Both the position numbers and the translations under genes were made by a program. 50,423 nucleotides of DNA from assembly GCA_965658085.1 (NCBI GenBank), contig CBFHQW010000001.1, positions 1 to 50,423 on the forward strand, read 5' to 3'. The number at the start of each line of letters is the position of its first letter. The first letter of the stretch is position 1. This document shows, piece after piece, positions 814 through 50,423 of this stretch. This DNA comes from Candidatus Thalassarchaeum sp. GTDB lineage: Archaea > Thermoplasmatota > Poseidoniia > Poseidoniales > Thalassarchaeaceae. Under the pieces are notes generated by a model. The model did not search any database. It saw only the letters and a program-made list of their open reading frames with translations, and was not told the DNA's origin.

Positions 814-3800
814 GTGATATCGATGCTCGACTCTCAACTTAGCAGGTGGAACTCTCTGTCTCGAGGGAGTCGTAGGACGGCCATCGCGCTGCTTATCATC
901 ATAGACGCCAATATAGGTCTACTGAACGGCTGGGGCCTACTCAATCTGTTAGACTCCCTCTCTGGGGGCAATGTACCCAATGATATGGTCTGGCTGCTGC
1001 AGGTCATCGAGTCAATTTCAGGCGGATTCTTCCTAGTCAAGATCCTATTCGACGATGTTCCTGCAAGTTGGCCAAGATCGATTGCCATCGCCTTGTCGCC
1101 GATATTCCTGTTGTTCATGGTGGGCATGAGTCTTGACAATTTATTCAAGGGCCTGAATGACGACGTCAGACTAACTCTCGACCTCATCTCCATAGGCACA
1201 TCAACACTCACATGGTCATCGACCTATCTCGCAATCGCAGTCGGACTGACTCTCACTTACAAGGTCCAGCGCTACGGTAACTTTGCCCAAAGTGAGTTCT
1301 TCATGCTCGGCATGTATCTCTCTATGGTCATGGTCTGGTCTGACTACTTCTTCCCGATGTACGATGCACCTCTGGACGGCACTCTGGCATGGTCTGTCCT
1401 TCTCTGGACGCTTGTTGCCGCTTTCGTACTCACCGGTCTTGCTGGTATCATCATCGACAGGCTCGTTTATCGCGGTTTCAGGAAGAAGGAAGCTTCACCG
1501 CAGGTGATGATGATCGCATCTCTAGGGGTGGCTCTAGCTCTGAGGGCCATCACCTACCTCCGCTTCGGCGCCGGCAAGAAGATGTTTGAGCCGGATGCTG
1601 ATTGGAGAGTCCCAACTCTGAGGTGGGACATACCGACCCAGAAACTGCGATTGAATCTAGGCGTTAGGGACCTCGAAGATGGCGATACATACACGCACGG
1701 TGGATGCGAGGCAGTAGGCACAGATGAGGCCGGTGCACCTCTGTATGAACATATCACGAGTGAGGGTAGCAAGCCACTGTTCGATATGTATAATCTAGCC
1801 AACGACTGTGTCACCGAGGCCACCACTGGCTACGCGTACTACAAGGGGGCAATCCCTGTCCTAGTATTCAGCTCCGTCATTCTGCTGCTGATTCTACTCA
1901 GGAAGACTCGCCTCGGGCGCAGAATGAGGGCAGTAGCCGACAACCCCGACCTAGCAGCCAGCAGTGGAATCAACGTCGAACGCATCCAACTAACAAGCGC
2001 ATTCCTGTCAGCAGGAATCTCAGGAATGGGAGGAGCCATCTTCGCAATGACCCTCAGATTCACCCCTGAGACCGCCTTCACTCTCTTACTACCTTCCTTT
2101 GCAGTCATCGTCCTCGGAACCATCGGCTCGATTCCTGGGGCCATAGTTGGCTCACTGATTGTCGGTTTCGTCAGAGCCCTCTCCTCACCTGTACTGATTG
2201 GAATAGGACTTCCTCTGGGGCGTTCCAACTATACTGCTCTAGACGGTGTGATGCCCTACGTCTTCCTTGTGGCAATACTCATGATTATGCCAGAAGGCAT
2301 CGGGTCGGCATGGGAGAAATGGAAAGTCGACAGGTTACGCAAACGAGCCGAGGAGAAACCATCCAAAAAATTGGGGGCGATTCTCGCCATATCTCCTTTG
2401 GGTGTACTGGGGGCGCATAACTTCCAGCAGAGAAAAAACGCCAGAGGCGAATCGATGATGATTGTGACCATCGGGGCCTATGTGTTCAGCAGAATCACCC
2501 GCTTCATTGCTGGCAACTCATTCGCCCAGGGATCCTGCTCCGCTGACTGCCAGGACTCTGGTTCAGTCGCAACTAACTTCGAGATGGTGACTGGCCGTAC
2601 CGATGGTGAATTCGTCCTCACTGACTCGCCATTTACAGAATCGGATGTCCAGAGTAGCCCGCCCAGTGATATGGACTCCACCGCTACAGAACAGTGGCTC
2701 GCAGACGCACTCGCCGATTTGAACAACTCATGGATGGACCTGATGAACACCGAACTTGGATTCGTCAACACCTTAGTGGACCTAGGCGACGTCATCTGGC
2801 CCACCGTCCCGATTTTGGTCTGGTTGATTGCTGTAATCGAGGGCTACTTCCTGTTTCAGGGTCGTGAAGATGACGCCTTGGAGCCACTAACTGACTTCAT
2901 CTCCAACCTGACCGCGCCTATCACCCAGTCTAGGAACTCTAGCTCGGTAGCCGTGACTCAGGCCCTTGGTTCGGCACGGGCCCCACTCGACTCGTTCCAC
3001 ACAACGATGTACAATAGCCTAGATAGTTTCCAGTCAGGATTCGACCGCAAAGGGAAGTACATGCTCCTAACCGTCTTGGTGATAATCCTCACCACGGCGG
3101 CTCCACCGTTCTTCGCAAGGGCCCTATTGATCCTACTGCTTCTGTGGATCGTCGGTCTCGCACTACTTGCTTGGAAGACGGGAGATCCTCCTCTGGGGGA
3201 ACTGAGGCGCCTAGCGCCGTATGGCAGAGAGAGCCCTTTCGGCTCGTGGGTCGCGTTCATCTCCCTACTGGTATTCCTGTTGCTGTTCGTCGAGTGGCTG
3301 CCGGTAGCAGAATCCGAGAATCAGACCTTCATCAAGACACTGCAAGTTTCCAATGTACTACTGACTCTCTCTATCTTCTCGCTGATGGCATTCGCTCTGA
3401 ACCTGCATACTGGCGTTACGGGGATGGTCAACTTCGGAATCATATTCTTCGTTGGGGTCGGGGCAATCACTGTGGGCATCTTGACCGCCCCCAAGGAGTT
3501 GCATGGCTACGACTGGCCAATCTTCTGGGCGGTCGTAGCAGGGGTGCTCCTGTCGGCCGTATTCGGCTGGTTATTGGCATATCCCACGGCCAGGCTCCGG
3601 ATGGACTACTTCGCCATCGTGACAATATCGCTCGGTGAGATTGTACGCGTGCTGCTGATGGGCGAGCCTTTGCTGAGAGCAGGTTCGTGGGGCTCGTCGA
3701 TAGGTATCTCGCGTTACCCTATGCCCTTCGAGCGCTGGTGGTTCTGTGGCAACACAGTTCCTAACAAGCTTCTCATGGGATCGGATTTTCTCTTTGGAAC

Positions 3801-4779
3801 TGCTGACGACATTATTGAGCCAATGACTCCTGATGATTGTGCTGATGTAGTCGGAATAGGAAGTCCCGCCGAGTTGCTGGGCCGCTCAAGTGGCGAGTTT
3901 ACAAATGTCGAAGTGTTAAATCATACATCAGGGTTTACTGACGTTTCCGATATTGTATATGAGGCGGCACCATACTCAATGGAGCTTGGCCAGCCAGCGC
4001 CCTACATGATGATGCTCGCCATCATAGGTATAGCCAGCCTGATTGCGATTTGGTGGCTTCTGGAGACGGTGCTGAAGTCGCCGTGGGGACGGATACTCCG
4101 TTCTATCAGGGAGGACGAGGAGGTCGCGCAGCACCACGGGCACGATGTATTGACGCACAAGGCGGCAAGCCTAGCACTCGGTGCTGCTATCGCAGGGTTT
4201 GCGGGAGCTCTTTGGGCTTGGAAACTCACAGGCTTCCAACCATCCTTCATGGCTCCTGCGAGATCCACATTCCTAGTCTGGGCCGCTTTCGTGATTGGCG
4301 GAGCGGCCAACAACAAGGGAATGATCATCGGCGCTTTCATCTACGTCATCATGGAATTCGTCTTCAATGTCCTAGTGGCTGGACAGGGCTCATCAGATCT
4401 CCCACTCAATGAAACTGCTGCCATGATCGATCGCTTCTTTGAGTGGATGGTAACAGGTAGTGAACTCTGGTTCTGGCCGCACTTCACTCCGTTAGAGACC
4501 TTCCTTGCGATTGTAGTGATAGGCCTCTTGACCAATAAATGGGGCATAGTCGAATCGGGTCTTTGTGGTGCCACAGTATTCGCCGCGAACTGGGTGCTCC
4601 TAGGTGAGCGCTCGATAGATGAGGGCTTCATCACCGGCGCAATTCTTGCTGACATGGCTTACGTCAAGGTCCTGCTGATTGGCTTGATGATAGTATTCTC
4701 ACTGAAGTACAACCCGAAGGGTCTGTTGCCCGAAGTCCCGAGCAGACCACCCCGTCGCACCGGAGGTGAAGCCGAATGA
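814..4779 (+). CDS. Fused LivH-LivM branched-chain amino acid ABC transporter permease with large insertions
   Basis: 1321-aa ORF. Residues ~140-505 are LivH-like (GLTLTYKVQRYGNFAQSEFFMLGMY; GRRMRAVADNPDLAASSGINV). Residues ~830-1300 are LivM-like (ALNLHTGVTGMVNFG; LRMDYFAIVTISLGEIVR; SPWGRILRSIREDEEVA). The stop overlaps the livG start (ATGA at 4776-4779). The start is uncertain: GTG 814 or ATG 823. Confidence 0.8.
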   Translation: MISMLDSQLSRWNSLSRGSRRTAIALLIIIDANIGLLNGWGLLNLLDSLSGGNVPNDMVWLLQVIESISGGFFLVKILFDDVPASWPRSIAIALSPIFLLFMVGMSLDNLFKGLNDDVRLTLDLISIGTSTLTWSSTYLAIAVGLTLTYKVQRYGNFAQSEFFMLGMYLSMVMVWSDYFFPMYDAPLDGTLAWSVLLWTLVAAFVLTGLAGIIIDRLVYRGFRKKEASPQVMMIASLGVALALRAITYLRFGAGKKMFEPDADWRVPTLRWDIPTQKLRLNLGVRDLEDGDTYTHGGCEAVGTDEAGAPLYEHITSEGSKPLFDMYNLANDCVTEATTGYAYYKGAIPVLVFSSVILLLILLRKTRLGRRMRAVADNPDLAASSGINVERIQLTSAFLSAGISGMGGAIFAMTLRFTPETAFTLLLPSFAVIVLGTIGSIPGAIVGSLIVGFVRALSSPVLIGIGLPLGRSNYTALDGVMPYVFLVAILMIMPEGIGSAWEKWKVDRLRKRAEEKPSKKLGAILAISPLGVLGAHNFQQRKNARGESMMIVTIGAYVFSRITRFIAGNSFAQGSCSADCQDSGSVATNFEMVTGRTDGEFVLTDSPFTESDVQSSPPSDMDSTATEQWLADALADLNNSWMDLMNTELGFVNTLVDLGDVIWPTVPILVWLIAVIEGYFLFQGREDDALEPLTDFISNLTAPITQSRNSSSVAVTQALGSARAPLDSFHTTMYNSLDSFQSGFDRKGKYMLLTVLVIILTTAAPPFFARALLILLLLWIVGLALLAWKTGDPPLGELRRLAPYGRESPFGSWVAFISLLVFLLLFVEWLPVAESENQTFIKTLQVSNVLLTLSIFSLMAFALNLHTGVTGMVNFGIIFFVGVGAITVGILTAPKELHGYDWPIFWAVVAGVLLSAVFGWLLAYPTARLRMDYFAIVTISLGEIVRVLLMGEPLLRAGSWGSSIGISRYPMPFERWWFCGNTVPNKLLMGSDFLFGTADDIIEPMTPDDCADVVGIGSPAELLGRSSGEFTNVEVLNHTSGFTDVSDIVYEAAPYSMELGQPAPYMMMLAIIGIASLIAIWWLLETVLKSPWGRILRSIREDEEVAQHHGHDVLTHKAASLALGAAIAGFAGALWAWKLTGFQPSFMAPARSTFLVWAAFVIGGAANNKGMIIGAFIYVIMEFVFNVLVAGQGSSDLPLNETAAMIDRFFEWMVTGSELWFWPHFTPLETFLAIVVIGLLTNKWGIVESGLCGATVFAANWVLLGERSIDEGFITGAILADMAYVKVLLIGLMIVFSLKYNPKGLLPEVPSRPPRRTGGEAE

Positions 4780-46672: not shown

Positions 46673-47818
46673 TTGAGCCACATGTCTGAAGGAGAAACTA
46701 GCTGGGTCCGAGCGATGGACCCTAGGGATACCAAACTCAACCTTCTACTACTAGCCCTGCCGGTAACTTGCTACTTCGCGTACATCGCGCATGACGAGTC
46801 CATGGCCTTCATGTTCTCTCTTCTAGCGATTATGCCACTGGCTTTCTTGATGGGTAGAGCAACTGAGGAGATTGCGCTCTATACATCAGAATCCTTGGGT
46901 GGATTACTCAATGCAACTTTTGGAAATGCTGCTGAGATGATAATCGCTTTACTCGCAATTTATACAGCATCGCAAGCAGTCTCTGGAAGTGATACAGAGA
47001 CACTCATGATTGGTCTAGTACAAGCCAGCCTAATCGGTAGTATTCTTGGAAATCTACTACTCGTGATGGGTCTTGCATTTTTGTGGGGGGGAATCAATTT
47101 CCCCGAGCAGAAATTCTCTGAAACTCAGGTCAGTTCCAACGGTTCACTGATGATGTTAGCGATGATTGTACTAATCATTCCAACCGTATTCAACTCAACC
47201 GTAGGGGGAACCGAGGGTGAAGAAGGCGTCATGCAACTAAGCCACGTAGCAGCAATCGTACTCCTTTTGTTGTACGGATTATTCCTTTACTTCCAGTTCA
47301 AGTCTCACGTGGATCTATTCGCTACAGAGACACATGACCATGAAGCGCCTGAGATGAGTAAGCGTGATGCCATTATTCTCTTAGTTGTCGCTACAATTCT
47401 AGTTTCTTGGATGGCCGAGATTCTTGTTCATTCGGTAGAATATGCTGCCTCGGATGAAGGACTGGGCCTTCCCCACTTATTCATTGGAGTGATTCTACTC
47501 CCTCTATTCGGTAACGCGGCCGAGCACTTCACCGCCGTGGTAGTTGCGGGCAAGGACAAGATGGATCTCTCCTTTGCCATCTCGATGGGCTCATCAACTC
47601 AGATCGCAGTCTTTGTAGCTCCAATGATGATTCTCGTGGCATGGGCATTGAATGTACCATTAACTTTCGAGTTTGGAATGCTAGAGACTGTATCTGCATT
47701 CCTAGCCGTACTAATTGTGAATATCATAGCTTCAGACGGCAAATCGAACTGGCTAGAAGGAGCAATGCTGCTTGGCACCTACGCGGTCTTAGGTGCAGCC
47801 TTCATGTTCCATCCCTGA
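46673..47818 (+). CDS. Ca2+/H+ antiporter (CaCA/CAX family)
   Basis: Two alpha-repeats, GNAAEMIIAL and GNAAEHFTAV, and about 11 TM helices. Possible starts: 46673, 46682 or 46715. Confidence 0.85.
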   Translation: MSHMSEGETSWVRAMDPRDTKLNLLLLALPVTCYFAYIAHDESMAFMFSLLAIMPLAFLMGRATEEIALYTSESLGGLLNATFGNAAEMIIALLAIYTASQAVSGSDTETLMIGLVQASLIGSILGNLLLVMGLAFLWGGINFPEQKFSETQVSSNGSLMMLAMIVLIIPTVFNSTVGGTEGEEGVMQLSHVAAIVLLLLYGLFLYFQFKSHVDLFATETHDHEAPEMSKRDAIILLVVATILVSWMAEILVHSVEYAASDEGLGLPHLFIGVILLPLFGNAAEHFTAVVVAGKDKMDLSFAISMGSSTQIAVFVAPMMILVAWALNVPLTFEFGMLETVSAFLAVLIVNIIASDGKSNWLEGAMLLGTYAVLGAAFMFHP

Positions 47819-47886: not shown

Positions 47887-48597
47887 GTGAGCTCAGACAA
47901 TTCCACCAGCCCGCAACAGCGAGCACTTGCCATGTCTGTACATCTGGGCACGGCTTCCGGCGCGCTTTGGGCACTACTTTCTTTGGAAGCGATTTTTGTC
48001 GAAGACTACCGGACCGCCTTCTTCTGGATGTTCCTAGCAATGGTGGTTGATTCAGTAGATGGGCCCCTGGCTAGGAAGCTCGATGTCAAGCGTCATGCGC
48101 CACAGATTGATGGAGCACGACTTGACGACATCATCGACTACATCAACTACACTTTTGTCCCCATTGTCCTCCTAATCCATGCCGAATGGATCCCTGACCC
48201 AGTCTCGCTATGGGCAGCCGTCCCACTCATCGCGAGCGCCCTAGCGTTCACCAACACCGAATCCAAAGACACCGAGGAAGGCTTCTTCCTCGGCTTTCCT
48301 TCCTATTGGAATGTCTTCGCCTTCTACGTCGTAGTCGCAGCTCCCCCTGGCAGCGAGTGGTACGTGCTCCTACTGACATTAGCACTCAGTGCACTGAGCG
48401 TGATGCCAGTCCGCTTTGTCTACCCGAATCGATTCGACCGATTGCGCTGGTTCTTCATCGGTGGCGGCATTGTTTGGATAGCATCACTACTACTCATTGC
48501 CACACTATACCCGGACGCTCCGCGGCTGCTGGTGTTCGCTTCGATGTCTTATCCAGTGCTGTATCTCGGGCTATCGCTGTGGCTAGATAGGGATTGA
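47887..48597 (+). CDS. pcs: Phosphatidylcholine synthase-like CDP-alcohol phosphatidyltransferase
   Basis: SVHLGTASGALWAL..., FWMFLAMVVDSVDGPLARKLDVKRHAPQIDGARLDDIIDYINYTFVP, FFLGFPSYWNV and FVYPNRFDRLR align closely with rhizobial Pcs as I remember it. GTG start. Confidence 0.7.
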   Translation: MSSDNSTSPQQRALAMSVHLGTASGALWALLSLEAIFVEDYRTAFFWMFLAMVVDSVDGPLARKLDVKRHAPQIDGARLDDIIDYINYTFVPIVLLIHAEWIPDPVSLWAAVPLIASALAFTNTESKDTEEGFFLGFPSYWNVFAFYVVVAAPPGSEWYVLLLTLALSALSVMPVRFVYPNRFDRLRWFFIGGGIVWIASLLLIATLYPDAPRLLVFASMSYPVLYLGLSLWLDRD

Positions 48598-48598
48598 A

Positions 48599-50248
48599 TC
48601 ATTCCCTACCTACAACTCTATTCTTGTAAGCAGAGTAGTTTCCAGGCCAGACAATTAGGTTTCCATCTCCTTGTAAATCCCAAATTGTGTCACACACTTT
48701 ATCTAGGAAAAATCGGTCATGACTTACCGCGATAATACCTCCATCAAACTCATTCAAAGCAATCTCGAGAGCCTCCTTTGCATCTGTGTCCAAGTGGTTT
48801 GTGGGTTCATCGAGCAAAAGCATATTATTTTCCTCAAGCAGGAGCCTAAGTAGAGCCACTCTGGCCCTTTCACCACCACTAAGTTTGCTAAGTGGAGTTG
48901 TGACCATTTCCTTTGTGAATTGAAACTGCCCAAGAAGTGCCCGCAATTCACCATACTCCATTCTAGGTTTCAATTTCTGAACCTCTTCGATTGGAGTGAG
49001 TTCAAAATTCAAGGATCTATGGTCTTGATGGAAGTACCCGATTTGCACCCCGGGACTGATTTCTATTTTCCCTGAATCAAGAGTTAACTCACCTGTTATG
49101 AGTCTAAGGAGAGTGGTCTTGCCTACTCCATTTGGACCTATTACGCCTATCTTTTGACCCCTGCGGACACTTACTCCCAAATCCTGAATTATTGGTTTTG
49201 AAAGAGACTCAAAGGATAAGTTCGCATCACGGAACTCCAATACCTCCAGACTACTCTTCTCTGCAGATTGGAGATTGAAATTTAGACTCTGACGCTGCTT
49301 CGGCTTCAAAGATTTTAGCCATTTTAACTCTCTTTGGGAACGTGCAATCATGAAATGTTTCTGAGATACTGACTTGTCGAACTTGTTAGCTCTCTTCATC
49401 GATTGCATAGCTCCTTTAAGACGCTTAATTTCCTTCTGTGTCTTTACGATTCGATCATTCAATGTCCGTAGGAAGATTTCCTTCTGTTTCAGAAACGACG
49501 TGTAGTTTCCTGGATAGGCACGAAGATGAGAATCCTGAATCTCGACGATGTTATTGCAGACCCTATCGAGGAAATACCTGTCATGGCTAACTATCATCAG
49601 TGCACCCTCAAATCTGTTTAGGAACCTCTCAAGCCACTCTAGAGTATTGAAGTCAAGGTGATTCGTTGGCTCATCAAGGAAGAAAACATCAATTTGACTT
49701 AGACCGACCAGTTGTCTGGCAAGAGCAACTTTTGCACGCTCACCACCAGAGAGAGATTTTAGTGGCACCTCCATCGAGTTTTGATCTAGATTCAGTGCCT
49801 TGAGAATCTCCTGAGCATGCCCGGCGACGTCGCCCCCACCGGATCGAGCCATCAAACTCTGTAACTCCTGATATCTTTCCATGTCTGGTTGCCAGTCGCC
49901 ATCATAGAACGATGGTTTCCCCATTTTTTCTTCGAGTTCAGAGATTTCTTCTTCTAGTTCTAGAAACTGCCTTCCTCTGCGATTGAGCTCCTGCCTGAGA
50001 GTCGCACCGTCGTCTATGTCTCTAATTTGTGTTAGAAAGGCGAGCCTCAATGCCGGGGCGAATGAAATGTCTCCAAGATCTTGATCTTGGTTACTGATAG
50101 TTCTGAGGAGTGTAGTTTTTCCAGATCCATTGTGCCCTATTACGCCAATACGATTACCTTCGTCAATGCGTAAATTTACTCCCTCTAGAACTGTCAGTGG
50201 ACCAAAGGCCCTGTGAACTTCTTCAAGGCGAATCAGCTCTCTGGCCAC
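48599..50248 (-). CDS. ABC-F family ATPase (two ABC domains, no TM domain)
   Basis: Domain 1: GHNGSGKTT / LSGGERAKVAL / FFLDEPTNHLD. Inter-domain linker: GNYTSFLKQKE...KEIKRLK. Domain 2: GPNGVGKTT / LSGGERARVAL / LLLDEPTNHLD. C-terminal GNYSAY. GTG start preceded by GGAGAGG. Confidence 0.88.
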   Translation of the reverse strand: MARELIRLEEVHRAFGPLTVLEGVNLRIDEGNRIGVIGHNGSGKTTLLRTISNQDQDLGDISFAPALRLAFLTQIRDIDDGATLRQELNRRGRQFLELEEEISELEEKMGKPSFYDGDWQPDMERYQELQSLMARSGGGDVAGHAQEILKALNLDQNSMEVPLKSLSGGERAKVALARQLVGLSQIDVFFLDEPTNHLDFNTLEWLERFLNRFEGALMIVSHDRYFLDRVCNNIVEIQDSHLRAYPGNYTSFLKQKEIFLRTLNDRIVKTQKEIKRLKGAMQSMKRANKFDKSVSQKHFMIARSQRELKWLKSLKPKQRQSLNFNLQSAEKSSLEVLEFRDANLSFESLSKPIIQDLGVSVRRGQKIGVIGPNGVGKTTLLRLITGELTLDSGKIEISPGVQIGYFHQDHRSLNFELTPIEEVQKLKPRMEYGELRALLGQFQFTKEMVTTPLSKLSGGERARVALLRLLLEENNMLLLDEPTNHLDTDAKEALEIALNEFDGGIIAVSHDRFFLDKVCDTIWDLQGDGNLIVWPGNYSAYKNRVVGRE

Positions 50249-50423
50249 ACCTCTCCGCGAGAGCCCCCCCTACAAGTAACCGATTGACTGAGGGGCGGCT
50301 CATTCACTACTCTACGTTTCGACACTGCTTCGATTCGAAAACCATCCACCTATCCATAGTCCCAATCCTATCATTGCAATCTGGGCGAAAAGCCTCACTA
50401 TATGTCCAGTAGGCGAAAGAGAT

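Follow-up and report, generated by a model that had tools for sequence, protein, structure and literature searches.

The window analyzed here is the entire 50,423-bp contig C1 of a metagenome-assembled genome (MAG; code G000; 1.34 Mb in 136 contigs, 83% complete, 1.9% contamination) from Candidatus Thalassarchaeum. This genus belongs to the family Thalassarchaeaceae (Marine Group IIb; family f1 below) of the order Poseidoniales, and its relatives include MED-G34, UBA623, and Ca. Thalassarchaeum betae (G054). Near the right end of the window, an uninterrupted open reading frame (ORF) on the minus strand (48599..50248) encodes an ATPase of the ABC-F family whose GC content is far below that of its surroundings. 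ABC-F genes proved nearly universal in Poseidoniales and present in ∼60% of sampled Thermoplasmatota genomes, where they form one old archaeal clade. Within this clade, the low-GC allele is most probably (about 0.68 by our estimate) a within-family xenolog or an allele from a shared flexible gene pool. The low GC content is therefore best read as the mark of a transfer or replacement inside Thalassarchaeaceae and not of a bacteria-to-archaea event, since the archaeal ABC-F clade is order-wide and composition is native in 64 other species of the family.

ABC-F genes of Poseidoniales and other Thermoplasmatota

The coding sequence (CDS) begins with GTG, ends with a TGA stop codon at 48599-48601, and encodes 549 amino acids forming an intact, soluble, twin-cassette ABC-F ATPase. 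The first nucleotide-binding domain (NBD1; amino acids 1 to 246; 49511..50248, minus strand), which ends in PGNY, was delimited from motifs, Pfam ABC_tran matches, and an AlphaFold2 (AF2) model built from a 49-sequence alignment. NBD2 (amino acids 335 to 549; 48602..49246, minus strand) was delimited from motifs, Pfam, and alignment, and the two NBDs together with the linker between them cover the full protein length. Cassette 1 carries a Walker A motif (GHNGSGKT), a signature (LSGGE), a Walker B motif with the catalytic glutamate (FFLDEPTNHLD), and an H-loop (SHDR); the corresponding motifs of cassette 2 are GPNGVGKT, LSGGE, LLLDEPTNHLD, and SHDR. PGNYTSF (amino acids 246 to 252) follows the first cassette and PGNYSAY (amino acids 535 to 541) the second, with the protein stopping 8 residues past the second GNY motif, so that a C-terminal domain is absent. 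An arm subdomain within NBD1 (∼amino acids 84 to 151; 49796..49999, minus strand) was located by alignment to Escherichia coli EttA, YbiT, YheS, and Uup and by AF2 helices at residues 93 to 109 and 120 to 135. The inter-cassette linker (amino acids 247 to 334; 49247..49510, minus strand) is a helical hairpin of the P-site tRNA interaction motif (PtIM) type, as judged from alignment, AF2 helices at residues 249 to 286 and 293 to 314, and a match to Pfam PF12848 (ABC_tran_Xtn; amino acids 235 to 296) of 38.8 bits against a cutoff of 25.9. Its charged portion, KQKEIFLRTLNDRIVKTQKEIKRLKGAMQSMKR, lies at amino acids 254 to 286.

Pfam identified two ABC_tran domains (E value, 7.5e−47), and the only NCBIfam model passed was NF000355 (ribosomal protection-like ABC-F), with 426.7 bits against a cutoff of 380 (409.6 bits in the six-frame genome search). 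No transmembrane segment was found, the peak Kyte-Doolittle hydropathy over 19 residues being 1.15. Motifs, Pfam, NF000355, and hydropathy thus agree with an earlier note on this DNA, which had identified an ABC-F protein from its two cassettes, charged linker, GNY motifs, and lack of transmembrane domains. In the AF2 model (pLDDT 83.2, pTM 0.76), NBD1 bears an arm of two helices, and the two NBDs are connected by a linker folded as a long helical hairpin. The top structural matches retrieved with Foldseek (template modeling [TM] score, 0.72 to 0.74) were all ribosome-bound, ATP-closed ABC-Fs, namely, Uup-EQ2 (9nlj), EttA-EQ2 (9nl5), Mtb EttA (7msc), YbiT (9njf), and human ABCF1 (5zxd). The ratio of nonsynonymous to synonymous substitution rates (dN/dS) among alleles was 0.03 to 0.07, and the gene is therefore maintained as functional under purifying selection.

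The presence of ABC-F was surveyed by six-frame searches of species-representative genomes. Matches were obtained in 97 of 120 genomes and 12 of 13 genera of Thalassarchaeaceae, in 48 of 50 genomes of the Poseidoniaceae-like family f3, and in 2/2 genomes of family f2, with none in the 24 genomes from the sister order of the class. Across Thermoplasmatota genomes at least 80% complete (n = 251), 154 carried ABC-F. A control search gave matches in 8 model bacteria and in 0/4 model archaea. Two single-cell genomes, AG-447-I14 and AH-273-K03, also carry the gene, and the archaeal linkage therefore does not depend on binning alone. No match was found in some near-complete genomes (G018, 91%; two of genus g14, 98% and 93%; G032, 96%), which suggests that ABC-F is not essential and is dispensable in some lineages.

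Amino acid identity to the window's protein followed taxonomic rank, at 94 to 99% within the genus, 88% for the neighboring genus, 64 to 80% for other genera, 49 to 60% for other families, and 33 to 40% for other orders. Among 1.84 billion cluster representatives, the best match outside Poseidoniales was ∼38% identical and scored 360 bits, versus 693 bits for Poseidoniaceae; the closest of these outside matches came from scattered bacterial phyla, e.g., Bacteroidia and Armatimonadota. Trees were inferred under LG+C20, as a quick tree of 96 rows and a careful IQ-TREE tree of 70 rows, built without eukaryotic ABCF, Bacillus subtilis YdiF, and the Murina subfamily HMM sets. All Thermoplasmatota ABC-Fs, together with five cluster representatives, formed one clade (support, 100/100; stem, 0.37), and E. 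coli EttA, Uup, YbiT, and YheS fell outside it. The Poseidoniales ABC-Fs likewise formed one clade (100/100), in which f2, f3, and then the f1 genera branched in an order that mirrors taxonomy. Since a single supported clade mirrors taxonomy, the family is old in Thermoplasmatota and largely vertically inherited in Poseidoniales. Supports in the bacterial backbone were <50 in the careful tree, and the deep bacterial sister group was without support. As the nearest relatives outside Poseidoniales are only ∼38% identical, a recent transfer from a bacterium or eukaryote is excluded.

A query from family f7 retrieved proteins named Methanomethylophilaceae or Methanomassiliicoccaceae, and f7 was therefore equated with the group published by Murina et al. 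The earlier note's statement that ABC-Fs are essentially absent from archaea is in line with that survey (Murina et al. 2019, PMC6723617), which reported them missing from nearly all archaea and singled out Methanomassiliicoccales as an exception, but it does not hold for Thermoplasmatota. Our search of the literature on ABC-F in Poseidoniales found no paper, and public annotation already labels the relatives ABC-F. The gene adds a member to an established family with a familiar likely mechanism, and it comes from a large, little-noticed archaeal clade. Among the planktonic archaea of the surface ocean, Poseidoniales are the most abundant. Reviews continue to describe ABC-F factors as all but lacking in archaea, a textbook-level generalization that the distribution described here corrects.

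Composition and exchange of the low-GC allele

The GC content of the ABC-F gene (44.4%) is markedly below that of the pcs-like neighbor (54.4%), FtsZ (56.5%), and the whole MAG (54.0%). This bears out the compositional contrast first reported from hand counts of 22/60 and 24/60 G+C; these were right about the direction, but their 37 to 40% represents local minima in a gene averaging 44%. Against 3784 genome-wide windows of 1650 bp (mean, 0.540; standard deviation [sd], 0.024), the gene lay at the 0.26th percentile, ∼4 sd under the genome mean. For GC content at third codon positions (GC3), its value of 0.425 ranked at the 2.3rd percentile among 882 ORFs of ≥150 amino acids (mean, 0.587; sd, 0.062). 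The drop is sharp, with an edge located exactly at the 3′ end of ABC-F. There, the low-GC patch is bordered on its left by a pcs-like CDP-alcohol phosphatidyltransferase gene of native GC content (0.544; 47887..48597, plus strand), which is convergent with ABC-F, the stop codons lying 1 nt apart. The upstream neighbor of ABC-F is a gene for a DoxX-like membrane protein, of which the contig end leaves only the 3′ portion (50312..50423, minus strand; GC, ∼0.43 to 0.45).

In 64 other Thalassarchaeaceae species, with genomic GC contents ranging from 0.34 to 0.62, the difference in GC content between the gene and its 6-kb flanks was −0.005 ± 0.017. In the six species carrying the allele with ≥94% identity, it was −0.06 to −0.11. 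Because the gene tracks its flanks in the 64 other species, the anomaly belongs to one allele lineage and not to the ABC-F family. This lineage is nested in Thalassarchaeaceae, where its sister is the allele of normal GC content from the neighboring genus g15; at 87% amino acid identity, the two differ in GC3 (0.42 to 0.45 in the low-GC lineage versus 0.74 to 0.82 in g15).

Two further carriers point to exchange of the allele. In Ca. T. betae G054, ABC-F was 93% identical to that of the window at the nucleotide level, with a synonymous divergence (dS) of 0.31, while the flanks were 77 to 81% identical (pcs dS, 0.86); dS between the ABC-F genes of G016 and G054 was only 0.055. In G051, a member of genus g15, ABC-F was 92% identical at the nucleotide level, versus 65 to 70% for the flanks. 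An approximately unbiased (AU) test on the protein tree rejected monophyly of genus g15 (P = 0.007).

The allele was found in at least four genomic settings. The arrangements were pcs/ABC-F/DoxX-like, as in the window (context A; G000, G011, and G002); thyA-DEAD-box helicase/ABC-F (context B; G016 and G013); pcs-LLM-type oxidoreductase-ABC-F in the opposite orientation (context C; G054); thyA-folA/ABC-F (context D; G051); and a fifth setting (context E) in G008. Whatever the flank, a segment comprising a promoter-like element and the CDS minus its last two codons (48607..50290, minus strand) was shared at 90 to 93% nucleotide identity across species and genera, and the C-terminal tails of the protein varied with the context. 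The upstream part of this segment, the 42-nt element CAGTCAATCGGTTACTTGTAGGGGGGGCTCTCGCGGAGAGGT (50249..50290, minus strand), accompanied ABC-F in every context; it was conserved in G000, G011, G002, G016, G054, and G051 and largely also in the normal-GC allele of G100. Within it, TTACTTGTA lies at −31 to −23, the position expected of a TATA box for a leaderless archaeal mRNA, and the 42-nt element is accordingly interpreted as a putative promoter.

A history that would accommodate these observations begins with ABC-F entering, or arising in, Thermoplasmatota long ago and then passing mostly vertically through Poseidoniales. The low-GC allele would most likely have come from an unsampled lower-GC member, or the flexible gene pool, of the same family, and would have been acquired before G000, G011, G002, G016, and G008 split as species, becoming fixed in the ancestral Thalassarchaeum. 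Later, it would have been relocated on the chromosome and passed to Ca. T. betae G054 and to G051 of genus g15, with the moving unit consisting of promoter plus CDS, without visible mobile-element genes. A search for the donor identified none: P0055 (86% type) has a GC content of 0.576 in a 0.58 context, P0002 (93% type) again carries a low-GC gene in a 0.54 context, and the ABC-Fs of the 44%-GC genera of the family are only 78 to 79% identical.

Several results weigh against an origin by transfer within the family, or against parts of the surrounding argument. No lineage was found that combines a genome GC content of ∼44% with an ABC-F closer than the 88% type, and the donor is thus hypothetical. 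In the closest species, the dS of ABC-F matched that of the flanking pcs gene (G011, 0.08 and 0.08; G002, 0.16 and 0.27; G016, 0.31 and 0.39; G008, 0.45 and 0.33 for ABC-F and pcs, respectively), so that the low GC content has the same age as that subclade. The surroundings of ABC-F in G054, G051, and G008 revealed neither integrase nor transposase ORFs, and no repeats were found that could explain its mobility; no conserved termini were identified beyond the 42-nt promoter-like element, and no viral ABC-F copy that could serve as a vehicle was matched in IMG/VR contigs. The absence calls, among them those for 13 members of the genus, were made on incomplete MAGs, and some reflect assembly breaks, such as the G006 contig that ends right after pcs. 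The five cluster representatives within the Thermoplasmatota clade carry no taxonomic label, and ribosome binding and an effect on translation are proposed from homology and the predicted fold only.

These points lend some weight to an alternative in which the gene is native and was never transferred, the ancestral Thalassarchaeum ABC-F having drifted or been selected to low GC3 in place (AT-rich codons may, for example, have tuned expression or weakened mRNA structure) and the later oddities being ordinary rearrangements. The allele clade sits where the native gene of the genus would, as sister to genus g15; ABC-F and flank dS are equal among G011, G002, G016, and G008; the ancestral DEAD-box helicase neighborhood is kept in G016 and G013; and the donor was not found. 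However, orthologs tracking genome GC contents of 0.34 to 0.62 in 64 species argue against any gene-intrinsic constraint, and a GC3 gap of 0.32 to 0.39 to the sister allele arose at 13% amino acid divergence while the adjacent genes remained native. The DNA identity of the allele in G054 and G051, far above that of their flanks, and the rejection of genus monophyly also speak for exchange, and we consider purely native descent unlikely. Ribosome protection like that of antibiotic resistance (ARE) ABC-Fs, with the low-GC allele selected for displacing a ribosome-targeting natural product, would account for single-gene mobility, atypical GC content, and patchy presence within the genus, all of which resemble bacterial ARE genes, and the sole NCBIfam model passed is named ribosomal protection-like. 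It is nevertheless decidedly improbable: the PtIM tip is not extended and is near-identical in the low-GC and neighboring normal-GC alleles, no ARE family cutoff was approached, no leader peptide, attenuator, or leader ORF was found in the 63-nt gap to the upstream gene, and the family is order-wide and housekeeping-like.

An origin outside the archaea was implied by the earlier note, which took the low GC content as consistent with horizontal acquisition and suggested looking for the closest bacterial or eukaryotic clade. The foreign composition does fit acquisition, the gene being a compositional outlier, and ABC-Fs are overwhelmingly bacterial and eukaryotic and were absent from the four control model archaea. 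The implied source, however, is contradicted by best non-Poseidoniales matches at ∼38% identity from scattered phyla and by the nesting of the gene in the 100/100 Thermoplasmatota and 100/100 Poseidoniales clades, making a recent acquisition with the low GC content as donor signature very improbable. Of the two observations that the note named as counting against its own proposal, one was a broad, vertically inherited archaeal clade of native composition; such a clade was found at the order level, and native composition was found in the 64 family species but not in Thalassarchaeum. The other was a misjoin at the contig end, i.e., a 44%-GC foreign fragment assembled or binned onto a Thalassarchaeum contig. 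Such an artifact might be suspected since ABC-F lies 175 bp from the contig end, contigs of relatives break at or in ABC-F (G008, G013, and G006), and the 1-kb MAG contig C136 holds a different ABC-F 3′ end. Yet the order pcs/ABC-F/DoxX/epimerase is internal to an 83-kb MED-G34 contig (NTJT01000001) and a 16-kb UBA623 contig (DAUV01000077) from independent assemblies, the gene is mid-contig in other carriers (at 84 kb in G016 and 147 kb in G051), and the last 112 nt of the window run into the same DoxX-like gene as in G011, so that an artifact is exceedingly improbable. Transfer or replacement inside the family would make the low-GC allele a small, clean case in which related uncultured archaea exchange and relocate a core-like translation gene with no mobile element in sight. 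The allele also warns against taking a drop in GC content in a gene of this kind as a sure sign of interdomain transfer.

Relation to characterized ABC-F proteins and proposed function

Assignment to a characterized subfamily was rejected in each case. Scores for EttA were 376.9 bits against a cutoff of 599 (NF008775) and 369.3 against 806.75 (TIGR03719), with E. coli EttA outside the archaeal clade. Those for Uup (NF050005, 332 bits; cutoff, 900), YbiT (NF011646, 312 bits; cutoff, 762), and YheS (NF007921, 278 bits; cutoff, 917) also fell short, and the C-terminal coiled coils of Uup and YheS are lacking. The ARE families (Msr, Vga, Lsa, Sal, OptrA, CplR, and producer types) gave at best 202 to 322 bits against cutoffs of 680 to 1450. 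The protein is not ABCE1/RLI (NF009945, 143 bits; cutoff, 469) and lacks its N-terminal Fe-S domain; the MAG has a true ABCE1 gene (828 bits) at another locus (G000:C20:6790-8565). Matches to the anti-phage ATPases AriA, GajA, PtuA, and mad3 of PADLOC were generic, cassette-level, and below the ABC-F score (mad3, 173 bits over three pieces; remaining models, ≤72 bits), and no defense-system partner genes adjoin ABC-F.

No characterized subfamily stands out among the PDB sequence scores, which ranged from 231 to 261 bits (EttA, 261; ABCF1, 254; Uup, 252; YbiT, 250; YheS, 245; Arb1, 231). EttA (PDB 4fin, 3j5s, 9nl5, and 7msc) gave the best of these, with TM scores of 0.73 to 0.74 to ribosome-bound states, and resembles the protein in size, arm length, and lack of a long C-terminal domain; it differs in its 31% identity, a linker ∼8 residues shorter, and its position outside the archaeal clade. 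The PtIM tip is comparable in length to those of YbiT and YheS and is not extended as in ARE proteins. Uup, YbiT, YheS, human ABCF1, and yeast Arb1 share the fold, with PDB scores all under that of EttA, but the protein has neither the coiled-coil C-terminal domain that Uup and YheS carry nor the extension at the N terminus of ABCF1. ABCE1 (Rli1), canonical in archaea, is likewise a soluble twin-cassette ABC ATPase acting on ribosomes and differs in its N-terminal Fe-S domain.

The 'YdiF'-class ABC-Fs of Methanomassiliicoccales (Murina et al. 2019, PMC6723617) fall in the common 100/100 Thermoplasmatota clade and share the twin NBDs, arm, and PtIM; their identity to the Thalassarchaeum protein is only 34 to 40%. 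'YdiF' is a paraphyletic catch-all in that study and thus serves as a label, not as a defined family. Thermoplasmatota ABC-Fs outside Poseidoniales are ∼600 amino acids long and have a ∼60-amino-acid C-terminal domain, which all Poseidoniales copies lack; from this comparison, the Poseidoniales copies appear to have lost a short domain kept by the others. In loci L060-L079, this domain shows the conserved pattern Y.V...F.NW.TG.KY..GD and is unlike the Uup/YheS coiled coil.

By analogy with characterized ABC-Fs, the ATP-bound, closed form would bind the archaeal ribosome at an unoccupied E site, where the arm would contact the L1-stalk side and the PtIM hairpin would reach the acceptor arm of the P-site tRNA. 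The effect would be a tuned geometry of the peptidyl-transferase center, aiding initiation or the translation of difficult stretches, and ATP hydrolysis at the two intact sites would release the factor. ABC-F would act alongside ABCE1, for which the genome likewise has a gene. Such a mechanism is plausible given that eukaryotic ABC-Fs act on 80S ribosomes, showing that function is possible with archaeal/eukaryotic-type E sites. To our knowledge, no archaeal ABC-F has been studied experimentally, and with candidate proteins now at hand, E-site action on the archaeal ribosome beside aIF5A and ABCE1 becomes a concrete question. Compensation for loss of aIF5A was rejected as a role, as aIF5A is present in 71 of 79 genomes of the class, including 4/5 Thalassarchaeum, and coexists with ABC-F in relatives. 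In the 83%-complete MAG G000, aIF5A (TIGR00037) was not found, most likely because of an assembly gap.

A more speculative proposal, which we regard as improbable, is that the Thermoplasmatota ABC-F is a translation factor adapted to the archaeal ribosome and that the low-GC allele is a self-contained promoter-plus-gene cassette in a selective sweep, spreading across species and genera of ocean archaea because it protects or rescues ribosomes from an environmental stress, e.g., a ribosome-targeting natural product or cold. If true, it would be for archaea what mobile ARE ABC-F genes such as vga, msr, lsa, and poxtA are for bacteria.

Neighboring genes and further loci

A DEAD-box RNA helicase gene directly adjoined ABC-F in 27 of 100 loci from Thalassarchaeaceae (in genera g15 and g17 and also in G016 and G013), in three variants of order and orientation (e.g., L030 6623-7951, L033 6182-7321, and L035 6746-7873). 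This neighborhood is probably ancestral, because it is also that of genera g15 and g17, and a functional link between helicase and ABC-F is possible. The pcs-DoxX site, which holds ABC-F in G000, G011, and G002, was occupied in G008 and G016 by a gene for a 209-amino-acid protein with two dockerin-like repeats (GDANDDGSVD..GDF...ADINGD..V.VLDL), located at L054 (G008:C44) 3706-4335 and L055 (G016:C42) 1-312, the G016 contig breaking inside it. In G018 (91% complete; no ABC-F match), the pcs-like gene was reduced to its first 80 codons, with 89% identity (L050; G018:C1, 10001-10240); the pcs/ABC-F neighborhood is thus eroded in this genome.

The MAG itself holds part of a second ABC-F. Contig C136 (L002; 1024 bp; GC, 0.548) encodes, at 843-1022 on the minus strand, the final 60 codons of another ABC-F, this one of normal GC content (82% amino acid identity), together with a glutathione S-transferase (GST)-like gene. 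The contig is 97.9% identical at the nucleotide level to JAAZXW010000011 (bin18o, L090) and is probably a misbinned fragment of a co-occurring relative; a second locus is less likely. Five other short contigs (C46, C77, C53, C102, and C107) are uniformly low in GC (0.44 to 0.46; GC3, 0.38 to 0.43), make up most of the low-GC tail of the genome, and may be flexible islands or foreign or misbinned DNA.

A second low-GC patch in the window corresponds to a Ca2+/H+ exchanger (CAX) gene (46673..47818, plus strand; GC, 0.472; GC3, 0.484; TIGR00378, 333 bits). Compared with the CAX that G002, G016, and G008 have at this position, the allele of G000 and G011 was only 66 to 81% identical (dS >2), while the neighboring genes had dS values of 0.1 to 0.4; it represents a separate allelic replacement at the same hotspot.

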